A DNA stretch of 64,000 bases from a virus: the IMG/VR virus record IMGVR_UViG_3300003653_000052, positions 1 to 64,000 of that record; one strand, written 5' to 3'. Both the position numbers and the translations under genes were made by a program. The notes under the pieces are model-generated. The model did no database searches and was not told the origin of the DNA. It saw only the letters and a list, made by a program, of their open reading frames with translations. Positions 5,950 through 53,600 of this stretch are shown piece by piece (positions within the stretch are counted from its first letter, which is position 1; the number at the start of each line of letters is the position of its first letter).

Positions 5950-6335
5950 GGGGCCAACGGGTAAGCACCTTAAGTCTAATTAATAATAAGCAAGTAGAGC
6001 ATTGTCTATTAATGTGAGCTCTTTAAAACTAGTAGATACAAGAATAATTGGCAACAATGATTCAAGCCTTGGACTCGTTCAAGATGTTAAATTTGCAATG
6101 TCTCACAATTTACTCTCTGGAGTATATGTAGGCAATCCAGTTGGAGAACTGGAGCTTGTATAACATAGCAAAACCTCAAAAAACTATCTCTGAGTTATCT
6201 GAGTGCAAAGGTTTGTTAAAACCTTAAAAGATCAAAATAAATTAAATATTCTGTTTGTAGAAGATAATACATTCAAACTTGTAGAAATTTGTTAATTAAC
6301 TTAGGGCAACGAGGGTTCAACTCCCTCTGGCTCCA
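5950..6335 (+). ncRNA. ssrA: tmRNA-like gene (transfer-messenger RNA), about 386 nt
   Basis: The 5' end GGGGCCA (5950-5956) pairs with TGGCTCC (6328-6334) as a 7-bp acceptor stem with G3:U70. The T arm is GAGGG-TTCAACT-CCCTC (6311-6327) and the discriminator is A6335. A long bulged P2 helix forms between GCACCTTAAGTCTAATTAA (5965-5983) and TTAATTAACTTAGGGC (6292-6307). An H-type pseudoknot pairs 5996-6000 with 6018-6022 and 6002-6008 with 6033-6041. It ends 8 nt before an open 37-codon frame (6050-6160, stop 6161-6163). Length and topology match bacterial tmRNA. Confidence 0.78.
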
Positions 6336-6339
6336 CTAA

Positions 6340-6362
6340 ATAACTGATAATTAATCAGTTAT
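6340..6362 (+). terminator. 9-bp hairpin immediately 3' of the tmRNA-like gene
   Basis: ATAACTGAT-AATTA-ATCAGTTAT. There is no U-tract, so it may be a processing or termination signal. Confidence 0.4.
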
Positions 6363-6850
6363 AACAATATTAGTAGATATGGATGAGTGAAATACATACC
6401 GAAAGGATAGTATTCAAAATCCTAAGTTTACTAATCTTATTAACCAGCCAGTTAGGTTAAGATGTGTAATTCATCTCTACAAATATATCCCGTAAGATAT
6501 GTTAGTAGCTGTTATAGACAGCATCATTATAATATAATCCAACGGAGGAATATACACTAATAGGATTGACTCCTAAATAGAAGGACACTCAAAAGGGATA
6601 AAGATAGCCAAAGTCTTAGAAAGGTCTTTATATTATAATTCTTACTATTATTCCCTACAATACCGGTTCCAAGAGAGGAGGATACACATGACGTGTTCTT
6701 GGAAAGCTGATTCCTCATACCAAAATCCAGGACTTCTAAAGAGTTCTATCTTATATGATATCTATGAGTAAAGTTTTGATAGCACTCAGCACTTAAGGCT
6801 GGGTGGAAAAACCACGGATTATATTTTTAACATATAAAATAAATAAACAA
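6363..6850 (+). ncRNA. candidate structured RNA or long structured leader (island C2, downstream of the tmRNA)
   Basis: The region is ORF-free. An 8-bp stem pairs 6667-6674 with 6697-6704 and has an inner ACAC/GTGT hairpin. GAGGA (6675-6679) is complementary to TCCTC (6712-6716), giving pseudoknot potential. An 8-bp hairpin lies at 6783-6805, with further 5-bp hairpins elsewhere. Confidence 0.3.
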
Positions 6851-12205: not shown

Positions 12206-13288
12206 ATGGAAACTAAAGAAAAAATACAGGATCTTGCTTTACAAGCAATACTTCCTTACAAAAGAGCTGGTGTTAATATATCTATGGGAACAGGTAAAAC
12301 ACTATTAGGATTAAATCATATGGAAGATCATTATACAGATTATTGTAGATTTTTAGTAGTGGCTCCTAAAAAGTCAATATTTCAATCCTGGAAAGATGAT
12401 ATAGAAAAGTTTAATATGCAACATCTTCTACCTCATATTACATTTACCACTTACATATCTTTAAGTAAGCAAGATACAGATTATGATGTAGTATATTTAG
12501 ATGAAATGCATAATTTACTTGGTCATTATTCTACATGGTTAGAACTTTATAATGGTAATATATTAGGTTTAACAGGAACACCTCCAAAATCTAAACATTC
12601 TACTAAAAGTAAAATGATTAGTAAATATTGTCCAATAGTTTATACTTATAGTACTGATACAGCTATTGATGATGCTATTTTAAATGATTATGAGATTAAA
12701 ATTCACATGTTATCTTTATCTTCTGAAAAATCTATAAAGATGACTAAAGGAGATAAACAATGGTATACTTCTGAACAAGATACTTATGATTATTGGACTA
12801 GACGAATAGATGATGCATTAACTGGTAAAGAAGTGCAAATTACTAGATTAATGAGAATGAAAGCAATGATGGAATTTCCAAGTAAAGAATACTTAACTAA
12901 GGTATTAATGAATCAAATTCCTAGCAAATGTCTTATATTTGCTAATACAATTGAACAATCTTTAAAATTATGTTCTCACAGTTATAACAGTAAAGACGCA
13001 CTTTCTTTGGCAAATTTACAATTATTTAAAGAAGGAGTTATAAATCAACTTTCTTGTGTATTAATGCTTTCAGAAGGTGTAAATATTCCAGATTTAAAAG
13101 AATCTATAATATTACATTCTTATGGTGCTTCATCTCCTAAAGGACTTCAAAGATTAGGTCGTTGTTTAAGACTTAATCCAAAAGATAAAGCTATTATTAA
13201 TGTATTATGTTATAAAAATACTGTAGATGAGAAATGGTGTAAAGATTCTTTTAGTTCATTGGATCAGTCTAAAATAAAATATGTATAA
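12206..13288 (+). CDS. SF2 (DEAD/DEAH-like) helicase
   Basis: Motifs are MGTGKT (Walker A), LDEMHN (motif II), LTGTPP (III) and LQRLGRCLR (VI). Confidence 0.8.
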   Translation: METKEKIQDLALQAILPYKRAGVNISMGTGKTLLGLNHMEDHYTDYCRFLVVAPKKSIFQSWKDDIEKFNMQHLLPHITFTTYISLSKQDTDYDVVYLDEMHNLLGHYSTWLELYNGNILGLTGTPPKSKHSTKSKMISKYCPIVYTYSTDTAIDDAILNDYEIKIHMLSLSSEKSIKMTKGDKQWYTSEQDTYDYWTRRIDDALTGKEVQITRLMRMKAMMEFPSKEYLTKVLMNQIPSKCLIFANTIEQSLKLCSHSYNSKDALSLANLQLFKEGVINQLSCVLMLSEGVNIPDLKESIILHSYGASSPKGLQRLGRCLRLNPKDKAIINVLCYKNTVDEKWCKDSFSSLDQSKIKYV

Positions 13289-13569
13289 TGGGACAATTTA
13301 TAACAGAGAAAGAAATAGCAGAAGAGCATTTCTCTCAATTAACAGAACAACAACACTCACTTGTATTAATAAATGATGATTTTAATAGTTTTACTCATGT
13401 AATGAATTGTCTTATGACACATTGTGATCATACATTAGAACAAGCAGAACAAATTACTGTTTTAGTTCATCATAAAGGTAGATGTTCAATAAAACACGGA
13501 CCAATTAAGAAATTAACTCCTCTTAGTAATACTTTAAATTTTAACAAATTAACAACTATAATAGAATAA
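13288..13569 (+). CDS. clpS: ClpS-like Clp-protease adaptor homologue
   Basis: LVLINDDFNSFTHVMNCLMTHCDHTLEQAEQITVLVHHKGRCSIKHG follows the ClpS core pattern (vvL.NDd.n.f.fV...L......A......vH..G.a.v). The size (93 aa) is also ClpS-like. Confidence 0.7.
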   Translation: MGQFITEKEIAEEHFSQLTEQQHSLVLINDDFNSFTHVMNCLMTHCDHTLEQAEQITVLVHHKGRCSIKHGPIKKLTPLSNTLNFNKLTTIIE

Positions 13570-14478: not shown

Positions 14479-14569
14479 GACAAGGTAACTCAGTTGGTTA
14501 GAGTATCTGATATTTGATCTAAAAGGACACTTAATCTTAAAGTCAGTGGTTCGAGTCCACTCCTTGTCA
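14479..14569 (+). tRNA. tRNA gene with canonical acceptor, D and T arms but an aberrant 40-nt anticodon/variable region (identity undetermined)
   Basis: The acceptor GACAAGG/CCTTGTC is a perfect 7 bp, followed by TA. The D arm is ACTC-AGTTGGTTA-GAGT. The T arm is AGTGG-TTCGAGT-CCACT and the discriminator is A. The middle region is about 17 nt longer than in a type-I tRNA. The best candidate stem, TCTGA/TCTAA, has 2 mismatches around loop TATTTGA. Confidence 0.7.
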
Positions 14570-14592
14570 CAAACTAAAATTTAAATAAAAAT

Positions 14593-24726: not shown

Positions 24727-24889
24727 AATAAGTGGAGAATTACTTAAAGAATGTAAAAAAGAATTAAGAGATTATCAGAAATTTTTAAATCTAAAAGCAA
24801 AAAAATTAAAATTACCACCACTTTTAAAAAAAGGACTTTTACATGGTGTTGATAATGTACTTAAAAAATTGGAGGAATATAATCTATGA
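24719..24889 (+). CDS. small hypothetical protein (56 aa), below the track cutoff
   Basis: Hand translation gives MYKISGELLKECKKELRDYQKFLNLKAKKLKLPPLLKKGLLHGVDNVLKKLEEYNL. ATGA overlap with the next ORF. Confidence 0.4.
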   Translation: MYKISGELLKECKKELRDYQKFLNLKAKKLKLPPLLKKGLLHGVDNVLKKLEEYNL

Positions 24890-25311
24890 GTTGGATGTAT
24901 CAAAGAATAGATTTTCAAGATCAGGATATTCCAAATGGAGCCGTAGGTTTTATATACATAATGACTGCTATAATAAATGGAAATTCTGTATCTTATATTG
25001 GTAAAAAGAACTTTTATTCAAATAAAAAGAAACCTTTAGGTAAGAAGAAAGCACCTACTGATAAAAGAAAGAAAACATACACCAGAGTAAGTAAACTAGC
25101 ATATCATAATTATTATAGTAGTAATGATATACTAAAACAAGCTCATAAAGATGGTATTAGTATTAAAAGAGATATCATTAAAATCTGTTATAGTAAAACA
25201 GAATTAACCTATCATGAAGTCAAACAGCAATTTTTATATGAAGTTTTAGAACATGACTATTACTTAAATGGTAATATTTTAGGACGTTGGTTCCGAGGAA
25301 AACTTAAATGA
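24886..25311 (+). CDS. GIY-YIG-like (Seg-type) endonuclease homologue
   Basis: GAVGFIYIMTAIINGNSVSYIGKK resembles the GIY-(x10-11)-YIG motif. A basic linker follows. Confidence 0.5.
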   Translation: MSWMYQRIDFQDQDIPNGAVGFIYIMTAIINGNSVSYIGKKNFYSNKKKPLGKKKAPTDKRKKTYTRVSKLAYHNYYSSNDILKQAHKDGISIKRDIIKICYSKTELTYHEVKQQFLYEVLEHDYYLNGNILGRWFRGKLK

Positions 25312-28308: not shown

Positions 28309-28724
28309 CAGAAACAATTAAGTTAACAGAAAAAACATTTGATAATGTAATGTCAATGTTAAATTCACCAGATAAAGAAAATGTAGTCTTAGGATTAAGT
28401 TGTATTGAAGAACTGAATATTAAAACAGGTCTTGTATACTTATTATTAATGAAAAAATTAGGAAATGTTACAGATGAATTATGGAGAGAAAATGCTCCTA
28501 AAAAATTAAAATATTTAAAAGGTATGGGAGTAGAAGGAACACTTACTTATAAAAAGGTATTAGACTTACTCCGTGAAAGAAAAGTACCTATTAAAGATAT
28601 ACAGTTCTTTCTAAATAAATTTGCATTATATCTTCATCAATCAGTTAGAGAAGATTATGCAATAATAGATGCAATTGATATTCAAATAAAACTTAAATTA
28701 CATGACACAGTTACTAATGAATAA
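28305..28724 (+). CDS. hypothetical protein (139 aa)
   Basis: ORF track. ATGA overlap upstream. Confidence 0.6.
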   Translation: MTETIKLTEKTFDNVMSMLNSPDKENVVLGLSCIEELNIKTGLVYLLLMKKLGNVTDELWRENAPKKLKYLKGMGVEGTLTYKKVLDLLRERKVPIKDIQFFLNKFALYLHQSVREDYAIIDAIDIQIKLKLHDTVTNE

Positions 28725-29934
28725 AATTTCTAGAGAGGACTCTTTATCAAAAGCTAGTAAAACACTGCTTCTTAAAGAACCTTTTTATGGTATGTTTCTA
28801 ATAATGTTGCATAAGATTTGGGATAAGAGAGTTCCTACAGCAGGAGTGGGGTTAAACGGAATTAATTATCAACTTGTAATTAATGAAGGTTTTTGGAATA
28901 GTTTAAATGAAAAACAACATGTTCAACTTACAAAACATGAACTTTTACATATTGGATTTTTTCATATTACAGAATTTAGTCATCTTACAGATCGTGAGTT
29001 ATCTAATATTGCTCAGGATCTTGAAATAAACCAATATCTTATAAGAGATGAAATGCCTCCTGGTGGATTGCACATTGAACAATTTCCAGAACTTAATTTA
29101 GAACCTAAACAAGGATGTGTTTATTATTATGATAAATTACAACAAGGTAAAAAAGATGGTAATTGTCCTAACTTAAATGCAATGTTAAAAGCTATTGCTG
29201 ATGGAGAAGGAGAATGTACAATTTCAATACCTGGTGATGGTACAGATACTATTAAAATTCCACAACATGATTGGGAGGAATTTGAAAAATTAGATGAAGC
29301 AACTCAAAGATTAATTCAGAAACAAACTGAACATATTCTTAAAGAACTTGCTGAACAAACTAAAAAATCTTGTGGTAATATTCCTGGAGAATTTAAGGAT
29401 ATATTAGATAGGATTAATACTGTTGAGCCACCTAAATTTGATTGGAAAGGATATCTTAGAAGATATGTTGGTTCTACAGGTAAAACCTTTACTAAATTAA
29501 CTAGAAGAAAATCCTCTAAATATATTGAAGGCAATCCTGGTTTAAGAGTATTATGTCACAAACATATACTATTAGCTTTAGATACATCTGGTTCAGTATC
29601 AAAATCAGAGCTTAAAGAATTTTTAGGTGAAATGAATCATATTTATAAAACTAAATGTAAAATTACAGTAATACAAGCTGATACTGCTATAAGTAATATA
29701 GCAGTTTTTAATCCTAAAATAGATTATAGTATTTTTGGTAGAGGTGGTACAGATTTTACACCAGCATGTGATTATTATAATAAACATTATAAACAGTTTT
29801 CATGTATGATTTATATGACAGACGGAGAAGCATCTGCTCCACAAAACCCAATGAAAGGAAAGATATTATGGGTACTATCTTCCGCTTCAGCAGAATGTAC
29901 TCATTTACCCGGTCACACAATTAAATTAAATTAA
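28717..29934 (+). CDS. DUF2201-type putative metallopeptidase plus VWA domain protein
   Basis: HELLHIGFFH (HExxH) lies in the N-terminal half and LALDTSGS (MIDAS DxSxS) in the C-terminal half. An alternative start is at 28702. Confidence 0.85.
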   Translation: MNKISREDSLSKASKTLLLKEPFYGMFLIMLHKIWDKRVPTAGVGLNGINYQLVINEGFWNSLNEKQHVQLTKHELLHIGFFHITEFSHLTDRELSNIAQDLEINQYLIRDEMPPGGLHIEQFPELNLEPKQGCVYYYDKLQQGKKDGNCPNLNAMLKAIADGEGECTISIPGDGTDTIKIPQHDWEEFEKLDEATQRLIQKQTEHILKELAEQTKKSCGNIPGEFKDILDRINTVEPPKFDWKGYLRRYVGSTGKTFTKLTRRKSSKYIEGNPGLRVLCHKHILLALDTSGSVSKSELKEFLGEMNHIYKTKCKITVIQADTAISNIAVFNPKIDYSIFGRGGTDFTPACDYYNKHYKQFSCMIYMTDGEASAPQNPMKGKILWVLSSASAECTHLPGHTIKLN

Positions 29935-29942
29935 TAATAAAT

Positions 29943-31262
29943 ATGGACATAGTAAATCTTAATATTAAAGAAGCTAAAAGTGTAGTTGAATACTTCATTA
30001 ACAATAATTTATATCTTGAGAGTATAAATAAAAAGCCATTGGCTCTTAATTTACAAGGTCCTGCTGGAATTGGTAAGACTAGTTTAATTAAACAAATAGC
30101 TAAAGAATTAGATATGCATATTGTATGTTTAAATCTTGCTCAATTTGATGAATTAGGAGAACTTACAGGTTTTCCAGTAAAACAGTATCAACTATGTAAA
30201 GAAGGTACTCCTTCTGCAGGAGTTCCTATATATGAAACTAAAGTAATAACAAAACAAGTTCTTGAAAATGGTAAAATGGTAATTAAAGAATTATCAGAAA
30301 CAGTTCAAGTTGGAATTACAGCTAGTGCTTCTATTGCAGAAGATTCTTGTTTATGGATAGATGAAGTAGCTGTTAATGAATATATCAAACAAGGATATAT
30401 ATTTACAGGTAATAAAAGAATGGCCATAGCAGCTCCTGAGTTTATAGCTGGAATAGAAAAGCCAATATTGTTCTTTATGGATGATTTTTCAAGAGCACAG
30501 ACTAGGTTTTTACAAGCAACAATGCAATTAATTCAAGATTATGCTTATGCATCTTGGAAATTACCTAAAGGTTCTACTATCCTACTTTCTACAAATCCTG
30601 ATTCAGGAACCTATGCTGTAGAAAGTTTTGATGATGCCATGAAGTCTAGATTTATGACTATTAACATTAAACAAGATGTACCAAGTTGGGGTGAATGGGC
30701 TGAAAAAGATATTCTAGATACTAGATTGATTAATTTTCTTTTACTTAATCCTGAATTAGCTGATAATAAAGATGAAAGTATTAACCTTAGAAGTTTTACT
30801 AATTTCTTTAATTCTATATCTAGTATGCCTGATTTCTCTGCTCAATTACCTTTAATACAGATGTTAGGAGAAGGCTCAATAGGTTCTGAAGCAACAGTTA
30901 TGTTTACTATGTTCATTAATAATAAATTAGATAAATTAATTACTCCAACAAAAATCTTATTTGATAATAATGAAGCACAAGTAATGAGAGAACTTAGTGA
31001 TTGTATTGGTACAGGTAATAATTATAGAGCTGATATTGCAAGTATACTTGTAACAAGAATTATTAATGTGGCTATTAATTTTGCTGAACATAATTCTATT
31101 GAACAAAAAACTATTGACAGATTAATTACGTTAACTACAACACCAAATACATTAACTAATGATCTTAAATACATATTAATTAAAAAGATAATTAATGGTA
31201 ATAAACAGAAATTCGCTAGGTTATTAACTAATGCTGATGTAGTAAAAATTGCAGTAAAATAA
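29943..31262 (+). CDS. MoxR-like AAA+ ATPase
   Basis: Motifs are LQGPAGIGKTS (Walker A) and FFMDDFSRA (Walker B). It is paired with the upstream VWA protein, as in MoxR-VWA systems. Confidence 0.85.
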   Translation: MDIVNLNIKEAKSVVEYFINNNLYLESINKKPLALNLQGPAGIGKTSLIKQIAKELDMHIVCLNLAQFDELGELTGFPVKQYQLCKEGTPSAGVPIYETKVITKQVLENGKMVIKELSETVQVGITASASIAEDSCLWIDEVAVNEYIKQGYIFTGNKRMAIAAPEFIAGIEKPILFFMDDFSRAQTRFLQATMQLIQDYAYASWKLPKGSTILLSTNPDSGTYAVESFDDAMKSRFMTINIKQDVPSWGEWAEKDILDTRLINFLLLNPELADNKDESINLRSFTNFFNSISSMPDFSAQLPLIQMLGEGSIGSEATVMFTMFINNKLDKLITPTKILFDNNEAQVMRELSDCIGTGNNYRADIASILVTRIINVAINFAEHNSIEQKTIDRLITLTTTPNTLTNDLKYILIKKIINGNKQKFARLLTNADVVKIAVK

Positions 31263-40874: not shown

Positions 40875-43800
40875 TTAATGTCTATTACTAAATATTTGAT
40901 CCATTGTATTTAATGTAGACTGGTAACTACTTAATCCAGGCACCATTTTATAAAATGATTGTGCTGTTTTAGAGCCTCCTTCATGTCTTCCTCTTTTATA
41001 AATATCTGATTGAGGATCATCCAAATAATTCCACATATTACCAACTAGTTTATGACCATCTCTAATTGTTTTGTACAAAGGAATAGGGTCTTTAGTAATT
41101 GCCGTAATAGAATTAAAACTATAAAAGAAAGTCATATCTTGATATAACCTAGTTAATGTATTTATTGTCATATTCATTTCTTTATCTGGAGGTTCTTTAC
41201 CTGCTAATGCAGCTAATGTCATTAATATTAAGGACATATATATAATATACTGTAACTCTCTTATATTAACTCTCATATTTTGAATATCTAAATCTGTTAA
41301 TCCTAGTTTTTTAAGATCTTTTTCATATTTTTCTTCACATAATTCAGATAATGACTTCATTCCTAATTGACTAAATCCGGGAATATTTGCTATTTTAGTA
41401 AGTAATGTAAGCATTGTTCCTCCTGCTAATGAACCCATACCTTTCCAAAATCCATTTTCTTCAGTATATGCTTGTCCAACATCTCTCCATGTGGTATATC
41501 TACCTTTAAATTGACCTTCAATTTCAGCACCAAATCTTTGATGAATTGCCCTAGGCAACCAAGTTCTAAACATCATAAGAACTCTTCCCGACACTGTAGA
41601 TTTTATACCCATAGTGCTTTGATAATCTCCTTGTGTTTGTTTTCTAATTTCTCTAACTCTATCTTTTATTTTTTTAATGTATAGAGGATCTAATTCACCA
41701 TACTTTTCTGTATTAAAGTTAAAATCATCATCAAATGCGTCCCATAAATTATCACCATTTAAAAATGCAGGTCTTTCATATTTCATTTTAGCAATTAATA
41801 ATTGACTTGCAAGAATATATTCTCCAGAGGTTTGCCAAGTTAACCCAAACTTTGCAATTTTACTAGTATACGTTTGACTATCTTCTATAAAACTCTCTTC
41901 AGAGATTCCCATAACTTCATTGGCTTTTTTAATCTTTTTAGCTACACTGGTTGGAATTTTACCTAAAGTAGTATAATTAAGAGCTGAATTACCAAGAATT
42001 CTTAAAGCTTGATATAATTCTTTATCTGTAAAATCAATTTTTCTAGCAGCATGTAAAAAATTATTTTCTAAACCAATTGTTAAATTGACAATAGCTGATA
42101 ATGGTTTTAAAAACATTAAATTAATTCTAGTATAATCTATTATTGCATCAATTACTTTTACTCCTGATAATTTATATAATATAGGTTCTTCTGGAATAGG
42201 TAATCCTTTTTGAATAGCCTCTGCTCTTAATATTTCCCATTTTCTATACTGTATTTTAAGTTGAGTGGCTTCTTTTTCAGTAGGAGGATTGCTTTCTGCA
42301 TCTAATCTTCTTTTACCATATAATTCAGATAAAATATTATATAACGCTAAATCTTTAGCGTTAGTTAATCCACCTTCAATTACAGATGGATCTCCCATAT
42401 TATGTATAGTTATACCTTTATTAACTCTAATAGCCTTTTGTTTATCTAATAGTCCTTTTAACAACCAAATATCAGGTTCTATTTCACTTTTATGTTCATA
42501 TGCTGTAGCTAATTGATAAAAATCTTTAATTAAATCTAATGGATTAGTATATCGTCTTTCTTTTTGTAATTCACCTATTTCTTTAGGATATACTTTTTCT
42601 TTAGGATTACCTTTTTCATCTGTTGCTTTTCCAGAATATCCACTTATATCTTGTTGTGTAATAGCTTTTCTAAATGTACTATTCATCCAATTCCCCATAC
42701 CTTCCCATGTTCTCTTTAATATAGTTGTATCTTCTTTATTAAAGTCAAATAATATACTATTTAGTACTTTATCAAATGAATTTAAATCCACTAACATTCT
42801 ATGAGGAATTTTTTTCATACCGTTTGTAATTGTATTAACTACAAATTTATATAAATCATCATCTTTAATTTTATTAAATTCAGGATTTATAAATTCTGCT
42901 TTTGGTGATTGATTAAGATATCTATACCAAAAGTTATTACCTTGAGTTTGAACTCCTGTATTTGCATAAGCTAATCCCAAATAAGGTGAATTTGAGTTTT
43001 CCCAATGTCTAATATAAGCTTCATCATCAGGACTTAAAAGTTCATCTTCATTTACCATAGCAAGACGTTCTTTTAATGAATCTAATCTTGCATTATATAT
43101 AGCTTCTCCTTCAGCAGTTAATGTATAGTTGTTTCTATCCATATACCATCTATCTCTATGATTGTACATCATTCTTCTATTATAAGCACTCTTAGTAGTA
43201 TTTGGCTTAAAGGTAGATTCAAGATATGTGCTTACTTTTGTTAACATAAGTTTTTCTTCGTCAAAATAAGAACCTTTGGTTTCAGTTATTAATCTTCCTG
43301 AAGCATCTAAAAACTTTTTAATAGCATCTTTATCTTTATATTTTGCACTAATTGCATCAAATTCTTTATTAAAAATAAACATTGCATCATTTGTCTTTCT
43401 TCTAGTTGTTTCAAATCTACTATCCATTAATCTTAATATAGGAATGATTGTAGTATCCATACCTAAAAATAGAAGTGTAGTTTTACTAATGTCTTTTACA
43501 GCAGCATTCATTCTTTCAAAGGTCATAGGTATTCCTTCTTCTACTGATTGATTTTCAATATTAGTACTTTGTCCTATCTTCCATTTTTCTAATAATATTA
43601 AACTTTCCGTTCTAGTATGTTGTAACTTTTTTCTATATTCAGCATCAAGCATATTTTTATCTATTGCTTCATCTAAAATTACAATTCTGTTTAATGTAGC
43701 TTCAATAAAAATTAATTCTCTACCTGAAAATTTAGATTTATTTAATATGCTATTTACTTCTTTTAGATCTCTTAAAGCAACATTAATAATATTATTATAT

Positions 43801-44102
43801 GACACTTCTTTTTGAAGTGCTTCTATAGATCTTTTAATTGTTTCTATATTGGCCCAGATAACATCTTTTTTAATAGTATCTTTTTCACCTATTAATTCTA
43901 GTTTTCTATTTTTTAATGATAAAATTTGTTTTTGATGAAGTGCTATTAACTTCTCATCTATTTTTTCTTCCTCCTCATAAAGATTAAGAGGATTTTCTTC
44001 AGTTATACCTTCATTAATTACATAAGAAGCTCTCTCTTCAGATACTTTTTCTGAATATTCTTCAAGTTCTTCATGACTTATTGGACAATTAATATCGCTC
44101 AT
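40875..44102 (-). CDS. large virion-associated (cargo-type) protein, 1075 aa, function unknown
   Basis: It is an uninterrupted 3.2-kb ORF and the last gene of the leftward giant-gene block. It has hydrophobic segments near the C-terminus (..YIIYMSLILMTLAALAG..). Confidence 0.8.
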   Translation of the reverse strand: MSDINCPISHEELEEYSEKVSEERASYVINEGITEENPLNLYEEEEKIDEKLIALHQKQILSLKNRKLELIGEKDTIKKDVIWANIETIKRSIEALQKEVSYNNIINVALRDLKEVNSILNKSKFSGRELIFIEATLNRIVILDEAIDKNMLDAEYRKKLQHTRTESLILLEKWKIGQSTNIENQSVEEGIPMTFERMNAAVKDISKTTLLFLGMDTTIIPILRLMDSRFETTRRKTNDAMFIFNKEFDAISAKYKDKDAIKKFLDASGRLITETKGSYFDEEKLMLTKVSTYLESTFKPNTTKSAYNRRMMYNHRDRWYMDRNNYTLTAEGEAIYNARLDSLKERLAMVNEDELLSPDDEAYIRHWENSNSPYLGLAYANTGVQTQGNNFWYRYLNQSPKAEFINPEFNKIKDDDLYKFVVNTITNGMKKIPHRMLVDLNSFDKVLNSILFDFNKEDTTILKRTWEGMGNWMNSTFRKAITQQDISGYSGKATDEKGNPKEKVYPKEIGELQKERRYTNPLDLIKDFYQLATAYEHKSEIEPDIWLLKGLLDKQKAIRVNKGITIHNMGDPSVIEGGLTNAKDLALYNILSELYGKRRLDAESNPPTEKEATQLKIQYRKWEILRAEAIQKGLPIPEEPILYKLSGVKVIDAIIDYTRINLMFLKPLSAIVNLTIGLENNFLHAARKIDFTDKELYQALRILGNSALNYTTLGKIPTSVAKKIKKANEVMGISEESFIEDSQTYTSKIAKFGLTWQTSGEYILASQLLIAKMKYERPAFLNGDNLWDAFDDDFNFNTEKYGELDPLYIKKIKDRVREIRKQTQGDYQSTMGIKSTVSGRVLMMFRTWLPRAIHQRFGAEIEGQFKGRYTTWRDVGQAYTEENGFWKGMGSLAGGTMLTLLTKIANIPGFSQLGMKSLSELCEEKYEKDLKKLGLTDLDIQNMRVNIRELQYIIYMSLILMTLAALAGKEPPDKEMNMTINTLTRLYQDMTFFYSFNSITAITKDPIPLYKTIRDGHKLVGNMWNYLDDPQSDIYKRGRHEGGSKTAQSFYKMVPGLSSYQSTLNTMDQIFSNRH

Positions 44103-44604: not shown

Positions 44605-47600
44605 TTAACATTTAAAAGGGTCATTACTATTTTCTAAAGTAGCTAGAGTTTTCTTATATACATCTCTAATTGCTTGTTTACCTATTTCAGTGGTATTACT
44701 ACTAGTACCTATACCAGCAAAGTTTTTAGTAAGAATAGGTGTATCTATTTTAATAAAATCATTTTCTTTCCATGTATACCAGCCTATATCATATTTATTT
44801 TTTATTTGATTAAATACATAAACAGGTTTATTTTCATTTATAGCCATTTGAACAGCACCACTAGTACCTCCATTAACTTGAGGTATTAATGCTATTTTAG
44901 TTACAGAACCTCCACTTAATGTTATGTTATCTCCTTTTGCAACTAAACTACCTATTGCAAATATAGCATCTGCATTTTTAACTTGAGCCCAATTTCTTAT
45001 TTTTTTACTATTTCTTGTTGTATGAGTAGGTTCTATTCGTCCCATTTGTCTTTCAGCAAGTGTTATTTTAAGTTGACCTTCTCCTACTTTGTTAGTAGAA
45101 GGTTTACCATTTCTATCTACACTACCTTCAGCAGCAGTTGCTACAGGTCCAACATCTTTTGTAGCATCTATGGGAGTTACTCCTTTATTTTGTAATCTTT
45201 TATCTGATACTGCTCCATCAGAAGGTAATAAATAATGTTTATGATTTATAAACTCAAAATCATTACCTATTAAATCCCATTCTGCATCATATCCTTGTGC
45301 TCCTCCTGAATGATTTATATAATCTTTTATATTATTAATTGTTGCGGTAGATACAGATTGTTCATCTATTTTTAAAAAAGCATCATTAAGAGCTTTGATA
45401 AACCAATTTTTACCTCCTGTTTCCCAAACAGTATTTTGTTTAGTTGGTTGATGAGTAGATGATAATATCCAAGCAGATCCTCCTACTTTATTTATTTCTT
45501 CAACAAGTCTAGGATGTTGTTTTAATTTTTCTTTAATAATTTGAACCATTAAATTATAAGTATTATTAGGCCCATCATCTTTAGTAGCTGTATTTTTAAG
45601 AGCTTGATAAGCAGCTTCAGCATCTTTATAAAATTTACTTTTAAAATCAACAGGATATGAATTTGATATATTACCTTTTGATTTAGCTAATTCAGTTGGA
45701 TTAGTAAGTGCTGCTCCTAATCCTTTAGCATTACTTGATATTTCAATACCATTAATTACTGTTGTTAGAACTGATGTGGTTTTACTTCTATTATTAATCA
45801 TTTCAAGTAATACATCAGCATGAGAAAAATAAGGATATGGTTTATAATAAAGTAATGTTTTACCATCTAAATTTCCAGAATTAATCTCTTTTAATATCCA
45901 ATTTCTTCTTTCTTGTTGAATATCTTGATGAGCAGTACCATTTAACCAATTTCTATAAGCTTCTGTAGCTTCTTTTACAGTAGGTACAATAATTAATCCG
46001 TCAACTAATCTACTAATAACTTTCCCATCTACTACTTTATCTTTTGGTGTACTCCATTGATTACCAAAATAATGAAACTCAGTTGCTTTAGTTAATTTCA
46101 TAATTCCTGCAGGTCTCATTGTCCAAATACCCTTAGCTGCAAAATAAGCTTCTTTAGCTGCTGCATAAGTTGAATAATTAATGACTTTAGCTGCAGGTGT
46201 AGGTACGATAGTAAGTTGAGGTTGTACTTCAAATACTGTATTTCCTTTTACTTTTTTAATTTCAGCATACATTTTATCACCAAATACAACATTTATTGGA
46301 ATTAATCTTCCTCCAAATGCATTGGCTAATTCATTTAAGCTATTTTTGTTTAAATTAGTATCTGAGTTATAGGGTATTATAAATCTTTTGTTTGGGTTAG
46401 CTCTAGCAACGGTATAAAGTTCTTGTATATTAGTTCCAAGTTCTACATAATTTAAAGGTTGTCCTGGTTTTTCAACAGTAATTAGTCCATATCCAGTACC
46501 TTTAGTTCCAACCATTAACCCAGTCTTTCCAGCTATTGCAAAATCACCTACTTTATTGTCAACTACATCTTTACTTAAATTTAGATTCCAGTTTCTATAA
46601 TTATCAGTAGTATTAGCATAAGCTAATGCTGCCATTCCTTGACCATGAAAACCTGCTCTATTTGCACCAAATACCATGACATCATTTTTACCAAACATAT
46701 CTTGAGATAAGTTTCCTGTAAAAGCAACTTTATTGTTAACAGTAGAAACAGGTTCAACATTCTTTTTAGTTAATTTAATATTATCTAATGTTTCAGTTCC
46801 CATAACTTTTCTTAATGTTAATACTGTTCTATAATTATCAGTTTTAACCATTTTATCAGCATGGCCTAATCCTGTAAATGCTTTATTAACAGTTAGTGTT
46901 GGAAATCCTTGAGGCATTGGTAAATCATTAGTTTCTTTATCAAAAACTATTTCATGCATTACATTTCTATTGTTTCCTGAAAATATAAGTATAGCTCCAT
47001 TATTTAAAATATATTCTGATTTAACAGTTCCTTTAAATGATTTAGGTAAAACATCTTTTACATAATCTATAATTTTTGTATCTCCTGTTTTTTCAGCATA
47101 TTTTAAAATATTAGAAGGTGTTATTTGTCCATAAGTAATTTTCTCTTTTAGGTTTTTAGTAACTAAATTTAAAGCAATTCTATATGGAGTTACATTACTA
47201 TCTGTTAAATTAAATTCATTACTGTCTTGTAATTCATAAGTAATAAATTTCATAGGTCTTCCTAATGAAATAGTAATAATTGGAGATTTATTAGTTTCTG
47301 TATTATCTTGATGTATTATTAAACTTCCATTATCTTCTTTATCATATACAGAGTTATAACTTGCTTCATATTCTGAAGCATCAATACCTTTAGTTGCTAA
47401 TAATTGAATGATATTTGAAGGTATATTTGGTAGTATTTTTCCATTTCTATCAATATTAGTATAGCCATATAAAGGAAATCCTCCAATTTGATTCATAGAT
47501 TCTCCTTTAACCCATCTATCTTTCATAGCTTGAGTAATAGATTTACCATTTAATTGTTTACCTACTACAAATCCTTTTTTAGTTTCAATAGACATTGTAT

Positions 47601-50600
47601 CATTTAATCTTACCCATCTGTGCCCAAAATCCCAAGATATTGAACCTTTAGTTTGTTTGTAAGAAGTTTCAGCAATTAAACCTTTAAAGCTATTTACTAA
47701 ATCAATACTTGTTTTTAAATCTATAGCATTTTCAATTATAATTAATCCATCTTCATTTTTAATAATCTTTTCATTAAGCATAGGTTGAGATGTAACAAGT
47801 GTAGTAACTTGTTTAATCATTTGTAAACCTGTTTTAAGATCTACATTAGAAATATATACTTCTCCTGATTCTAAATCTATTAAATCATATGTATCAGTAA
47901 GATTTAATATCCATTTAGCTGATTGAGGAGCTTTCTCACGTTTACTTGTTTGAGGATTATAGAATTCTTTAAATGTTGTTTTAGAAGTGAAAAACTCTTT
48001 AGGTAATTTACCTTCAGATTTAGTTAAATAACTTTTAAAAGCAGCAAGATCTTCAGAATTAATTATTTTTATTGTAATAATAGATTCTGGTAATATATAA
48101 TCAGGGTTTACAAATCCAAATTCTTTAAGTAATCTTTTATTTAAATGTTCTAAAACAAGTTTATCAGTAATATTATGACCATATCCTTTTTCATCAAATA
48201 TTAATGCAATACCTGATATTAAATCAAACACCATATTTTTAACACTTTCATCAATATCATTAATAGAATCTACTTTTATTTTAAAACCAGTATCTAAAAA
48301 ATCATCACCACTAGTAATGAAACGTGCTTTACCTAAATATATATCTGATATTATTTGTTTTTCATTTTCTGCAATATTTACTGTATTGAGAGTATAAATT
48401 CCTTCAATTGCAGTAGGGGTTATTCTATCAAATTCTTTATCACTAGTTATTATGTTTTCTCTAATAATCTCTTCTCCAGCCTTTTTAAGCTCTAAAACAT
48501 CTGTAGTAGAAAGATAGTTAATACCATTAATTCTTTGATTTAATTTTTTATTAGCTACAAGATTGTTTCTTAAAAATAAATTAAAAACAACCTCTAATAT
48601 ATCTTTATTCAAATTATGAGTTATTTTTTCAATAGCATCATTCATTATTAATGATTGAGCAGAACCTACAGGAAATATACTTGGATATGCAAATTGATGT
48701 TTATTCATACCACCTTGTAGAAAAGCATAAATAGAAAACTTTCTAAATAATTCAGATAATCTTTCATTATCTTCTCTGGCTTCTAAAGTATCTCCCATTA
48801 TTTTTTTAACAGAAGAATCAGATAATTTAGCAAGATCATCTGCATATTGTTCAGTGCTCTCTGGAGTTAAATCTCCTGAATCTTTTAAAGTAATATTTAC
48901 AAGACCTGATGCAAACTTATTTTTATTATTTGTATCATTTAAAGTATCTGAATAATAACTTGGTTGTAATTGTTGTATTATACCATATTTTGCTGAAAGA
49001 TTGTGTTTTTCTGAAAGATTATATTTATTAATAAGTGACATTAAAGTAGTAGCATAAGATGCAATACCAGACTGTTGATTATTAAAAAACATTGTTTTAA
49101 TATTATAAGAATTTTCTAAAGCTCTAGTTTTTAGATAATCTTCATAAATTAGTTCAGGAGTTCTTCCATCTTTTTTTTCTAATTTACTTGTAAAATAATA
49201 TGTTTTAGTAAACTCCTCCATAGGAGTAAGTGATCTTAATAATTCACGTTCTATAACAAAATCATAATAAGCTTTAGCACCTGCTAATTTACTTGTATAA
49301 TTATTAGGTAAATAAAATACATCTGAGGTAAGTGTTGATAATCCTTTTTTACGGTAAGATGTATCTCCAATAGCACTTAAAGTATAATCATTGTTTTTAA
49401 ATTCTTTTCTTAATATATTTTCATTAATATAAATAGCATCTGATTTAACTTCAACAGCATTTTTTCCCGTAGTAATATAAATTACAGGAGTACCCTTATA
49501 CATTTTGGATTTTCCTATTGAAAATGATTTAAGATTATTTACAAATAAATAATTCATTAAAGCATTTTTAAATCTTTTTGGAAAAGAATCTTTATCAAAT
49601 CCTGTTCTATCTCTAATAGTATTAATTTTTTTATAATCATTTAGAGTATCATAAATAAATTCATTTAAAAGATTATTATTTCTTAATGTAAACAATCTAC
49701 TGAATAAATCTTGTGCAAGTTCTGTTACTTTAAAAGCACGTATAGCACTTTCGTCAGTGATATACTTTATAATCTTAACCGGCATTTTAGTACTTGCAGT
49801 TACTTCATCAAGTCTTAATTGTCTAGAAAATACATCAAATAAATCCCCAGATTTAGTAGTATCAAAACTTGTTACTTTTCTTGGTTCATCAAAATTTGTA
49901 GCTAATTCTTCAATATATAAATAATGTAAAAAACCATTAATAGCATCTTTATCTTTAATACTATCTGAAAGTTTAGATTTAGCTATCTTTTCTAATTCTT
50001 TTGTAGTAAATATTCTATCTCCATGTTCTTTATTTAAATTTTCAGCAATAGCCACAGTGTCTCTCATATCCATAATGGTACCTGCTTTTTTAACCATTTC
50101 ATATATAGAGGTTCTTGCATTGGCTTTGGCAAATTCAGGACTACTATCTTGTTTCTTTAATCTATTTAACAATCCTTTATTAATCTTCATATTTTTAATA
50201 TATGCTCTTATTATAGGATTATTTACATAATAAATGACATCTTTTATAGGTACTCCTGATTCTAATAAAAATAAGATAATAGGAGTTACCTCTTTATTAC
50301 CTTGTATAAAAGCAATCCAAGCATCTTTTTCAGAATCTACATAACCATTCATTAATTGAGAAATGATTTCTGAAATTTCATGTTCATTATTTGAGTCATA
50401 TAAATTTGATAGAGATATTACTTTACGTTCTATACCATTTTCATCTAATATGATTATTCTATTGTGTTTTAATAATAATTTTGTAGGAACATTAATTATA
50501 ACATCTGTTTTCTTTTGAACACCTTCTTCATCTGGTACCATTCTTTTACTTATAAAAGGTACTTCAAAAGGTATATAAGCTCCAGCACTATTATAAACAA

Positions 50601-53600
50601 TATTACCTTTATTACCCAAAGCCGCAATACCTAATGCTTCTTTACTAACAAAGTTATCTGTGTGTTTCTTAAGATTAAACCCATATTCAAGATTACGTGT
50701 AGGACTTACTCCTTTTAAAGTAGGAGTTCCGTTTTTTCTTTTTGAAGACTTATAATCATAATCCTGAACATGTTTTTCCATATCATATGCTATGGGCTTA
50801 GTTTTATGAGTATCATTAGGAGTTAATAATCTTATGGCATTTTCAGGTAATTCAAGAATACTGATTATATCATTAATCAATGAGTTTTCTATAGCTTTGA
50901 TGAAGTTTCTTCTATGATCTTTTAATGCTGCATATTCTTTATTTAATTTTTTAAGTTCAGGATAATCTTTTAAATAATCTTTTTTTTCATCGTGTTTTTC
51001 ATTTAATGCTGTCTCAATTTCACTAAGTATTTTTGAATTTTCTTTAATATTATTAAATGCTGTAAGCATATCTCCTTTAGATAACATAGTAGGAACAGTT
51101 TTAAAATCATTAATGATTTTTACTATTTCTTTATTATCCCTAGAAGTCATAATTACATTTAACCCAGCATAAACTTTACTTACAGCGTTTTTATTTACAA
51201 TAAATGATTGTATATCACTTATATCTTGAGATAATACATCTTTTATATTAGTTTTTTGTATACCTAATGCTACAATTATCTTTCCCTTATCTGCTTTTTC
51301 TGAATAAAAACTATTTATTAAATCTTTAACTTTATCTCCTACAATACCTTCTTTAGTTAGTATTTTAGTTATTTTACTTTCTATTAGTTTTATTTCATTA
51401 TTTAATTCTTCTCTTGTTGCATATTTATCTGAAAACCATTCTCCTGTTTTACTAATTGTAGGCATATAAGTAGTTAACTTATCTACGTCAAAGTCAGTAC
51501 CAGATTTGGCTACAATTTCAGCAGGTAAGATTATAATATTACCTGCAATTGTGGGTAGAAATTCAGCTATTATAGCAAATTCCATAGAATTATGACCTTG
51601 AACAGGAATACGTACACCAGTTAATCTTAATTTTTTTCTATTATCTCCAATATTTAACCATTCTTCATCTCTAATTAATTGATTGAGTCTAGCTAAACTT
51701 CTATCAGTATTAAGAACATCTATAGTTTTTTTAGGATCTTTAGGATCTATAATTGTATCATATTGAGCAATTTCAATACCTTTAGTATCAAGAAGATTAT
51801 AAAGATTTAAAAAACTTCCTTGCATTGCAATTTTTACTTGACATCCAATTGTGACCTTAATACCATCAATGTCAGCAGTATAAAAATCTAAATCTCCATC
51901 ACCATATTTTTCTAATTCAGCATCAATGTTCTTAAACTTTAATGTACTGGATACAGAAACTTCAACTAAAGGTTCACCATTAACTAGTTGTTTAAGAATT
52001 TTGTTATTAAGAACAGCCATTAATTTCTGTTCAAATTTATCAGCAATAGGAGAACCACTAAGATCTCTCATTAATCCCCCTTGTCCATTATTCTCAATAT
52101 ATTCTAATTCATGTTTTGTTAACCCTTGTTTTTCTAATTCGTCATGTACAAACTGAATTAAACTACTTAAATTATCTTCAGGACCTTCATAATGTCCTGT
52201 TTTAGCATTCCAACTCCATCCAGTAATACTTGTTATTAAATCATGTTTTTTTATCTGAATTAATTTAGAAACTCTATCTTCATATGTTCTTACTAATTTA
52301 AAGAAAGGAGAGATGGCCATTTGTTCAGCTTCTGTTAATGCTTCCCAAGCAAGTGTTCTTTTTACACCAGATATATCTTTTGTTATAAAATCAATTGGAA
52401 TACCATTTTCAATTAATCCAGCAGATAATAAAGTACGTAATTGAGTAGACATAGCGGCATGTCCTTTAAACTCACTATTAATTTCTGTTTGATTTTTTAA
52501 ATAATCAACATAAATTGTATTTTTTGTTAATTGAACATTTGGTTTCATTTTACCAGTTTGTTCATCAAATACATCATCTGCTATTTGTTTATTATTATTT
52601 GTTATAGAAGATAATTTAGAACCAGATGAGTATGTAGCATATTGTACACTCTGTTTCATCATAGTTTCATGTAATTCTTCTAAAGGAGTTCCTTCTATTA
52701 CAGAAGGAATTAATGGAAATAATGCAAATTTATGACCAGATGTTATTGGTAATAACCCGAGTGCTGTTTTAAGATTACCTGCATATTGTAATTTATAAAC
52801 CGGAAAGAATTCAACTATATCTTCTGTTAAGATGGGTTCTTTTCTTACAATTTTTTGATAAATTCTTTCTTGATGATCACTCCAAGATCCTTCTAAGTCT
52901 TTTAATCTTCTATAAGCATCTAATGAAATATAACCTTGACCATCTGTTACAGTAGGATTTTCATAAGGATCCATCATTAAGTCTAATTCTGTAGATAACT
53001 CATTATCTTTTTTACCCTTTTTTATAAGATGTTTTTTAAAAAGTTCTCTTAACTTTTTATTTACATGAGCTCTTGGTGTTTTATAATCTTTAATAATAGC
53101 TGTATTAAAAGTGCCATTAAACAAATCATCAATACCTGTAAGTTGTTTTGTAAGTGCTGTTCCTAATATATTAGCATTATCTCTAGCTGCCCGATCTGTT
53201 GGAAACATAATACCACTTGATTGAAATAAAGAATATCTTTTAGTAGCTTCATCTTTAAAATGGTCATAAGTATGTAATTCACCATTATGTAATAAAGTGA
53301 TTTCATAATTATTTATCCAACTATTATAAGTAAAGGAAGCTAATGCAGCATTATTTAATCTTTCTACATATGCTGGTTCTTTCAATAATGATATATCTCC
53401 TTTTATTGATTTTACAATATTTTCACGTATTCCTGGAGCTGTATAACCATATTGAGATATTAAAACTTCTTTATATTCATTATTTAAAGTAGTAAAATAA
53501 TGTTTTAGTTCTGTTTTAATTTTTCCTAATAATACTTCACCTTTTGTAGTACTATTAAGTAAATCTAATAAAGTTTTATTTTTATTAGCATTATATTTGT

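Follow-up and report, generated by a model that had tools for sequence, protein, structure and literature searches.

The 64,000-nucleotide stretch of viral DNA analysed here, positions 1 to 64,000 of IMG/VR virus record IMGVR_UViG_3300003653_000052 (hereafter the window), very probably carries at positions 5950–6338 of its + strand a functional one-piece transfer-messenger RNA (tmRNA, ssrA) gene of an uncultured, distantly crAss-related phage (Table 1). A preliminary description, made from the sequence, had proposed a tmRNA at this position and had suggested Infernal and ARAGORN searches as checks. With Infernal, the Rfam tmRNA model RF00023 matched the locus over model positions 1–374 of 374, with a score of 59.7 bits (E 7e-21) against a gathering cut-off of 47 bits. 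This full-length match, together with covariation in the tRNA-like domain, the P2 helix and the pseudoknot PK1, and with coding selection in the tag, supports the proposed tmRNA identity. The unconstrained minimum free energy (MFE) fold of the locus had an energy of −97.8 kcal/mol, as compared with −78.5 ± 5.0 kcal/mol for shuffled sequences (z −3.8), and by itself yielded the acceptor stem, the T arm and a 24-bp interrupted P2. The mature RNA is probably 5950 to 6335 with an added CCA. The locus had also been described as free of open reading frames (ORFs) and enriched in G+C. G+C content is indeed higher than in the upstream coding flank (0.30–0.35 vs 0.23–0.27), but positions 6339–6802 are equally G+C-rich, and the locus is not ORF-free: a 53-codon ORF with a TTG start (6002–6163) contains the tag frame and was annotated as a protein by the gene caller of the Joint Genome Institute on an identical 4.7-kb contig.

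We assessed the structure in an alignment of seven sequences (alignment A4) from the subclade of phage tmRNAs to which the window's gene belongs (related contigs and loci are cited by L number: L190, L198, L204/L258, L259/L287, L292–L294, L099 and L290/L291), scoring 46 core pairs in the acceptor stem, three P2 segments, both PK1 stems and the T arm. Pairing was observed in 96.3% of the cells, as compared with 35–47% when partners were slid by 1–3 columns, and 23 of the 46 pairs had changes on both sides, as compared with 5–10 in the slid controls. None of 500 shuffles reached any of the observed measures. Part of the structure had been derived from this alignment, whose sequences are related to one another; the slid control and the variety of pair types serve as safeguards. 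Covariation thus shows the tRNA-like domain, P2 and PK1 to be conserved. In the acceptor stem, G1-C, G2-C and G3:U were invariant in all seven relatives (G3:U also in eight of eight), and positions 4–7 all covary. Both this stem, with its G3:U70 pair and discriminator A, and the canonical T arm lie where the preliminary description had placed them.

The P2 helix overlaps the interval originally claimed for it (5965–5983 with 6292–6307), but its segments have different coordinates in the MFE fold, pairing 5968–5975 with 6299–6306, 5977–5986 with 6289–6298, and 5990–5995 with 6277–6282 (24 bp). Over these segments, 93–100% of the A4 cells are paired; covariation is seen in 10 of the 12 lower pairs, and the upper six do not vary. 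We made two pattern scans of IMG/VR, the counts from which are of matches listed and hence lower bounds; the conserved motif in the 3' strand of P2, combined with the T loop, was found in at least 120 contigs. For PK1, stem 1 is exactly as claimed. It is 100% paired in A4, with three of five pairs covarying, and its versions were all complementary (n=5: AGAGC/GCTCT, AGTCC/GGACT, ATCCC/GGGAT, AACGC/GCGTT and ATCAC/GTGAT). Stem 2 (92% paired; 3 of 11 pairs covary) is shifted from the claimed 6002–6008/6033–6041, and the pseudoknot ends 11 nt, not 8 nt, before position 6050. Compensated changes in PK1 are seen relative to both L099 and L290, the latter having ACACC/GGTGT in PK1 and GGGGGCG/CGCCTCC in the acceptor stem. 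Unconstrained folds of nine related phage tmRNAs gave the acceptor stem and a P2 of 21–30 bp in six, including the window and L099.

Table 1. Features of the tmRNA locus and the giant ORFs of the window (positions are those of the window).
Feature	Position	Strand	Basis
One-piece tmRNA (ssrA) gene	5950..6338	+	Rfam full-length match; MFE fold z −3.8; no ARAGORN call
Acceptor stem 5' strand GGGGCCA	5950..5956	+	7/7 pairs form; G5952 is G3 of the alanine identity pair G3:U70
P2 5' strand, three segments (5968–5975, 5977–5986, 5990–5995)	5968..5995	+	MFE fold and covariation
Pseudoknot PK1; stem 1 5996–6000/6018–6022, stem 2 6003–6011/6030–6038	5996..6038	+	A4 covariation
Tag frame; resume codon GGC 6050–6052, 37 codons = GNNDSSLGLVQDVKFAMSHNLLSGVYVGNPVGELELV, stop TAA 6161–6163	6050..6163	+	Rfam alignment, codon pattern
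Variable 3' domain at the position of PK2–PK4	6164..6276	+	Low posterior probability and large deletions in Rfam alignment
P2 3' strand, including conserved AAACTTGTAGAAA motif	6277..6306	+	MFE fold and alignment A4
T arm GAGGG-TTCAACT-CCCTC; stem 6311–6315/6323–6327, loop TTCAACT	6311..6327	+	5/5 pairs form, 3/5 covary
Acceptor stem 3' strand TGGCTCC 6328–6334 (U70 at 6332), discriminator A6335, tail CTA 6336–6338	6328..6338	+	
9-bp hairpin ATAACTGAT/ATCAGTTAT directly 3' of the tmRNA	6340..6362	+	MFE fold of 6339–6802
Three consecutive giant ORFs (1075, 4555 and 1896 aa)	40875–44102, 44605–58272, 58274–63964	−	Almost no detectable homologs

The tag reading frame is under protein-level selection. 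The resume codon GGC 6050 is at the Rfam consensus position, and ARAGORN begins the tags of those relatives that end in Ala-Ala (AA) at the homologous G. From there, a frame without a start codon encodes a 37-aa peptide, GNNDSSLG...GELELV. Among five subclade members, we counted 51, 27 and 78 differences at codon positions 1, 2 and 3, respectively, a pattern that rotates in two control frames; 44 of the codon differences are synonymous and 65 are non-synonymous. The window and L099 use different synonymous codons at 7 of 10 conserved residues (for example, CTG GAG CTT GTA vs CTT GAG TTA GTC), and the probability of an open frame of at least 36 codons in shuffles of these two RNAs is 0.05 and 0.09. 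Homologous tags were found in at least 25 sequences, with a length of 33–37 aa across the clade, and most of them end in ...VEELVAA, ...VEELLAA, ...EELELLAA or ...EELELQAA. As compared with ...T-E-E-L-E-L-L-A-A*, the window's ...G-E-L-E-L-V* terminates two codons earlier. This ...LELV end without Ala-Ala is found in six distinct sequences from two sub-lineages (the window and P0005/L290; L099, P0011, P0021 and P0022), and since it is conserved over substantial divergence, it is not a lesion. A degron end is typical of the tmRNA family but not universal, and missing Ala-Ala does not exclude membership.

We also looked for the gene in related phages. Scans of the ligase relatives with Rfam at the gathering threshold and with ARAGORN found no tmRNA, a low-sensitivity result that was overturned by a relaxed search. 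A combination of nhmmer, a custom scan for closed tRNA-like domains and relaxed Rfam scoring identified tmRNAs in L030 (29.9 bits), L005 (44.1 bits) and L099 (63.1 bits), which are phage contigs with a ligase or polymerase in common with the window; ARAGORN called none of the three. The second IMG/VR scan gave at least 77 closed tRNA-like domains, including those of subclade members L190, L198, L204/L258 and L259/L287. Phages of the subclade match the window in helicase (57% aa identity) and/or polymerase (36–50%), and their RNAs are homologous end to end, with 54–62% identity in a seven-sequence alignment; the closest relative, L290/L291, is about 74–94% identical in conserved segments. A search of a 5.8-billion-protein collection with the tag alignment returned 20 mis-called tag "proteins"; every one came from a metagenome assembly, with no match in NCBI genomes or UniRef, and the genomic contexts of tag-bearing contigs are phage-like. 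Because related phages with a common polymerase, helicase or ligase carry homologous tmRNAs, the gene is a lineage trait rather than a captured fragment. Some relatives have no tmRNA within 10 kb of the ligase, and the tmRNA is thus a patchy but inherited trait of the phage lineage. Neither the window RNA nor that of L190 had a blastn match among deposited phages, and a search of 185,579 bacterial species genomes for the exact 23-nt T-arm/acceptor strand gave three matches, none of which was a tmRNA (two were ordinary tRNAs and one was a sequence without an RNA call).

Several observations weigh against a functional tmRNA. ARAGORN, the other program that had been suggested as a check, called no tmRNA in the window. 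The window's tag (...GELELV) lacks the ...(Y)A(L/V)AA-type degron end, and is in this respect atypical. The D-loop analog ACGGGTAAGCA (5957–5967) has the GG, but the usual UUCGAC/UUUGAC is replaced; the Rfam alignment requires an insertion and a deletion here, and relatives vary at this position. In the PK2–PK4 region, the Rfam alignment has posterior probabilities of 0.1–0.3 and large deletions. Comparison of this 3' domain with that of L290 showed identity at 16 of the first 17 nt and an identity of 0.43 thereafter, and the region appears to evolve fast, almost freely. A PK4-like 3' pseudoknot, picked out by eye after a conserved AATAT box, was rejected, its stem 2 being within chance expectation (p 0.2–0.9 per sequence), and an unconstrained search for a 3' pseudoknot gave inconsistent answers. 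No SmpB or CCA-adding enzyme was found in the 64-kb window by Pfam scans of substantial ORFs (those other than the DNA polymerase and the 1896-aa ORF) or by tblastn with an E. coli SmpB query; tmRNA function would hence depend on compatibility with host SmpB. Scans of the window for sigma-70 promoters and for terminators gave matches at background level, and a promoter is not established. We rejected a candidate promoter of the tmRNA itself, TAnnTTTG, located 10–17 nt upstream in the window, L030 and L099: it has 89 matches in the window vs 113 expected, and is absent in L290. Lastly, identity between the window and L290 is highest in the tag and the next 17 nt (0.88–0.94), and alignment A6, of window positions 6107–6180 with L290, shows no nucleotide difference over the final 18 codons of the tag, its stop codon and the next 10 nt; the following 7 nt differ at one position, and the remainder of the RNA differs by 14–57%. 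Tag conservation could therefore partly reflect RNA-level constraint or recent exchange, and the identity over 6107–6180 hints at recent recombination or at an RNA element under constraint, for example a binding site or a structure resembling helix 5.

The PK2–PK4 pseudoknots of E. coli tmRNA tolerate replacement, so the poorly conserved PK2–PK4 region is no argument against function. As for ARAGORN, it failed on all three AA-less members tested (the window, L099 and L290) and called all AA-ending relatives, and we conclude that its silence on the window reflects a limitation of the tool and does not count against the gene. With Rfam, clade members score between 33.6 and 63.1 bits, on either side of the 47-bit cut-off (L099, 63.1; L204, 56; L290, 45.8), with about half of the scored members below the gathering score. 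Pharokka and large virome surveys rely on ARAGORN to call tmRNAs. Since this program misses AA-less members, and since about half of the scored clade falls below the Rfam gathering score, counts of phage tmRNAs are underestimates, with a detection gap in which the AA-less tmRNAs of this clade are systematically missed by ARAGORN.

The 3' end of the gene reads ACTA, as the preliminary description had stated, with the discriminator A6335 followed by CTA. Tails in the relatives are ACTA, ACAA, ACCG and ACAAA, and many phage tmRNA genes among the IMG/VR matches listed have no encoded CCA. The proposal that CCA is added post-transcriptionally is consistent with these tails and with a phage tRNA gene that is followed by CAA, and addition by the host would fit both observations. 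Directly past the 3' end, L099 as well as the window has a hairpin (GAGGA...TCCTC in L099). The window's hairpin is not followed by a T run and was not called in a simple terminator scan; it could act in termination or in processing. The 464 nt directly after the tmRNA (6339–6802) are ORF-free, with a G+C content of ~0.33, and moderately structured (z −3.1). We considered a second conserved RNA in this interval, but there was no Rfam match and identity to L290 was only 0.47, so there is probably none. The phage's tRNA-like gene that is followed by CAA, at 14479–14570 (+), has normal acceptor, D and T arms, and 39 nt where an anticodon arm and variable loop take ~22. ARAGORN calls it tRNA-Lys(UUU) and it scores 47.5 bits with Rfam, and its fold is not better than that of shuffles (z −0.8); the sequence allows two Lys-type loops (UAUUUGA or CACUUAA), both having A in place of the expected U33. 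In related contigs L005, L043 and L290, too, ARAGORN lists tRNAs whose "anticodons" have two bases.

By analogy with established trans-translation biology, we infer that the RNA would be expressed, charged with alanine and dependent on host SmpB. It would be transcribed together with early or replication-side genes, its 5' end would be formed by RNase P or by direct initiation, and its 3' end would be trimmed after A6335 before the host adds CCA. Host alanyl-tRNA synthetase would charge it with alanine via G3:U70, and it would enter stalled ribosomes with host SmpB and EF-Tu. Translation would resume at GGC 6050, appending alanine and the 37-residue peptide (...GELELV), and the ribosome would be released at TAA 6161. 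Because of the ...LELV end, proteases probably recognize tagged chains more weakly, or in another way, than they do classical ...LAA substrates. The presumed benefit to the phage is that ribosomes stay available during infection.

Phages often carry 3' fragments of tmRNA genes, which are common integration sites (PMC4383910, PMC9004378), and the locus could in principle be a decaying pseudogene or a captured piece of host ssrA (for example, a remnant of a phage attachment site, attP) that is functionless in the phage. The negative ARAGORN result, the degenerate 3' domain and the unusual tag end would be consistent with such an origin. However, the gene is full-length, with both acceptor strands; every core helix shows compensatory evolution; the tag has a coding signature; and the gene is conserved over a phage lineage that has diverged to about 45–57% protein identity. 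Moreover, among GTDB species representatives none carries a tmRNA with this 3' strand, and only metagenomic, phage-like contigs yielded the tag type. Decay or capture, which we regard as very improbable, is largely refuted by the covariation and by the codon-position pattern. We give similarly little credence to the idea that the 53-codon ORF at 6002–6163 is an ordinary small protein gene flanked by helices of an unrelated RNA structure. In favour of such a gene are the TTG start at 6002, from which the frame is open, the calling of similar ORFs as genes in many relatives, and selection on the peptide. Against it, the part upstream of GGC 6050 coincides with PK1, such that its conservation is explained by base pairing. 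In addition, L099 has stop codons four codons upstream of the GN start, the called starts vary between contigs, and the entire locus matches the tmRNA model end to end. We therefore reject the small-protein explanation.

A further alternative, which we consider unlikely but worth weighing, accepts that the RNA is real and proposes that it has been repurposed. An AA-less tmRNA would compete with host tmRNA for SmpB and stalled ribosomes, and its long peptide would be either no ClpXP/ClpAP degron or a phage-specific signal, so that rescued chains would be spared or redirected. The tmRNA of this sub-lineage might then have turned from degradation-tagging to protecting or routing rescued chains, out-competing host tmRNA, possibly together with a phage ClpS. 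In favour of this idea, the ...LELV end is kept in both sub-lineages, all other clade members ending in AA or LA; the internal tag is strongly conserved (GNNDSSLG.IQDLKYALANN.L); and the tag is the best-conserved segment of the RNA. There is also a precedent, in that a molecule consisting only of the tRNA-like domain (TLD), resembling a sequence of phage DS6A, strongly inhibits tmRNA (PMC4131195, PMC11915505). The window does encode a homolog of ClpS, the ClpAP adaptor, as a 93-aa ORF (13288–13569, +; PF02617, E 2e-12, 47 bits vs a cut-off of 23) in which the NDD and VH motifs are retained. In E. coli, this adaptor prevents ClpAP from degrading proteins that carry the ssrA tag. ClpS homologs are also encoded at the related phage loci L009/L031, L027, L029 and L030; however, ClpS and tmRNA occur together only in the window and L030, ClpS being absent from the examined parts of the other subclade loci, and the ClpS-bearing L027, L029 and L031 have no tmRNA within 10 kb of the ligase. 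The combination of phage ClpS and tmRNA suggests manipulation of Clp proteolysis, although the association is weak. A second point against repurposing is that the C-terminus of the tag is still aliphatic and hydrophobic. Other phage tags among the matches listed end in VA, LA, AV or SV, and LELV may be a variant of a tolerant degron. Were the tmRNA repurposed in this way, such variants would be systematically absent from phage annotations, because ARAGORN misses AA-less members.

We compared the window's gene, read as a functional tmRNA, with those described previously. Phage tmRNAs have been catalogued since those of the mycobacteriophage Bxz1 group and Bacillus phage G (PMC4131195), and ARAGORN identifies tmRNAs in 402 of 18,146 phage genomes, or 2.3% (PMC9004378). 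In huge phages, a tmRNA is found together with SmpB (PMC7162821). Proposed roles of phage-borne ssrA are maintenance of translation and manipulation of proteolysis (PMC4131195, PMC7162821, PMC9004378). The preliminary description knew of no tmRNA in a crAss-like replication or early region, but the implied novelty does not hold, since at least five RefSeq crAss-like genomes already have an annotated "transfer-messenger RNA, SsrA": cr52_1 (NC_055888.1, Buchavirus copri), cr125_1, cr114_1, cr60_1 and cr115_1. We found no paper discussing a tmRNA in Crassvirales. About a dozen further crAss-like records hold unannotated sequence homologous to the cr52_1 tmRNA. Eight records (NC_055889.1, NC_055896.1, NC_055893.1, NC_055890.1, NC_055869.1, NC_055873.1, NC_055894.1 and NC_055892.1) include stretches with 74–87% identity to parts of the permuted cr52_1 tmRNA, with no tmRNA annotation under the match, and may hold unannotated or partial tmRNA genes. 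The tmRNA of cr52_1, which is the one annotated crAss-like tmRNA that we examined for form and tag, resembles that of the window in belonging to a phage with a crAss-type genome and in having a tag, GNTSYVTDYTRLVA, that begins with GN and has a non-AA hydrophobic end. By contrast, ARAGORN describes it as a permuted two-piece molecule with a 14-aa tag, whereas the window's is one-piece with a 37-aa tag, and the two have no blastn similarity.

The window's gene has in common with standard one-piece tmRNAs (RF00023) the G3:U70 acceptor stem, the discriminator A, the T arm, a long P2, PK1, a start-less tag frame and a length of ~386 nt. It differs from them in its 37-aa tag ending in ...LELV rather than ...(L/V)AA, its atypical D-loop analog, its poorly conserved PK2–PK4 region, the lack of an encoded CCA, and a carrier phage without smpB in the window. 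With its own subclade, it shares the same PK1 and P2, the resume context AAUARUUGG, homologous tags (GNNDSSLG...EL..) and related phage backbones; most subclade tags end in ...ELVAA, ...ELLAA or ...ELELQAA and are called by ARAGORN, whereas those of the window, L290 and the L099 group end in ...LELV and are uncalled. The Bxz1 group, Bacillus phage G, huge phages, a pelagiphage, Melnitz and DS6A likewise carry their own ssrA, but they belong to other lineages and hosts; some encode SmpB (huge phages), and some of their tmRNAs are permuted (pelagiphage, Melnitz) or tag-less (the TLD-only DS6A molecule). An analogy for the conservation of a long tag over its full length is offered by Mycoplasma, in which tmRNA tags are ~27 aa long and have co-evolved with Lon, with internal residues, not only the C-terminus, acting as recognition determinants; those tags are, however, bacterial and of other sequence.

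Tags of ~23–37 aa recur in several phage tmRNA groups among the matches listed, whereas the commonest length of bacterial tmRNA tags is 10 aa (PMC11915505). Tag groups elsewhere in phage tmRNAs, again among the matches listed, include AEDIMSIPTSLTRG..AELAIAA, AKTEVDMAPSLAEADAILAKFGWAEEAAVAA, ADLYPSQKAS...ELELAA and DEMSTMTFEDLMAFVGADYAVAA. Long tags appear to be a general tendency of phage tmRNAs, and we found no paper describing such a tendency. IMG/VR loci L170–L288, L143, L144, L161 and L152 include groups of tmRNAs with long, internally conserved tags: AEDIMSIPTSLTRGNAVFARNAELAIAA (in many contigs), AKTEVDMAPSLAEADAILAKFGWAEEAAVAA, ADLYPSQKASAKVIKLTPVAEQELELAA and DEMSTMTFEDLMAFVGADYAVAA.

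The carrier phage was placed using the other genes of the window. The + strand holds a replication module with an ATP-dependent DNA ligase, SF2 and Dda-like helicases, a DnaB-like helicase, a primase, an exonuclease, a DNA polymerase, a dNMP kinase, MazG and homing endonucleases; structural genes are located outside the window. The ORF neighbouring the tmRNA has no homologs, and it occurs on the ~126-kb contig of the carrier phage. The crAss-like context given in the preliminary description stands only in part. The primase has 60 deposited homologs, essentially all crAss-like/Crassvirales (including Bacteroides and Cellulophaga phages), with 28–30% identity. By contrast, the DNA polymerase is at most 34% identical to that of any deposited phage, with best matches outside the crAss-like phages, and the giant ORFs (Table 1) do not point to them either. 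Among these ORFs, the 4555-aa protein has only a sub-threshold match to 2OG-Fe(II) oxygenases (residues 3600–3792) and a match to a PHROG of unknown function, and for the 1896-aa protein no match was seen other than a marginal one to tape-measure proteins. In their arrangement, the three ORFs are reminiscent of the block of giant virion proteins in crAss-like phages. Judged from sequence comparison, a distant crAss relationship appears to be partly supported. Among the mobile elements, the window has a segE-like GIY-YIG ORF at 24886–25311 and an HNH-family ORF (PHROG) at 28702–29934, and related contigs have group I introns (RF00028, 83 and 91 bits) near the ligase (L004, 8199–8452; L008, 5800–6131). 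At 28702–31262 (+), a putative metallopeptidase/VWA protein (DUF2201_N + DUF2201) adjoins an AAA ATPase. In L292 and L293, a MoxR-like AAA gene similar to this one lies after the tmRNA region, and the pair is conserved in the phage group.

Overall, the analysis provides good support for a one-piece tmRNA in a distantly crAss-related group of environmental phages. What is distinctive is a clade of one-piece phage tmRNAs with long, selected tags, an AA-less ...LELV end in some members, and a blind spot in detection. The long tags, and the fact that the tag is the best-conserved part of the RNA in this clade, suggest that phages select for more than a C-terminal degron.

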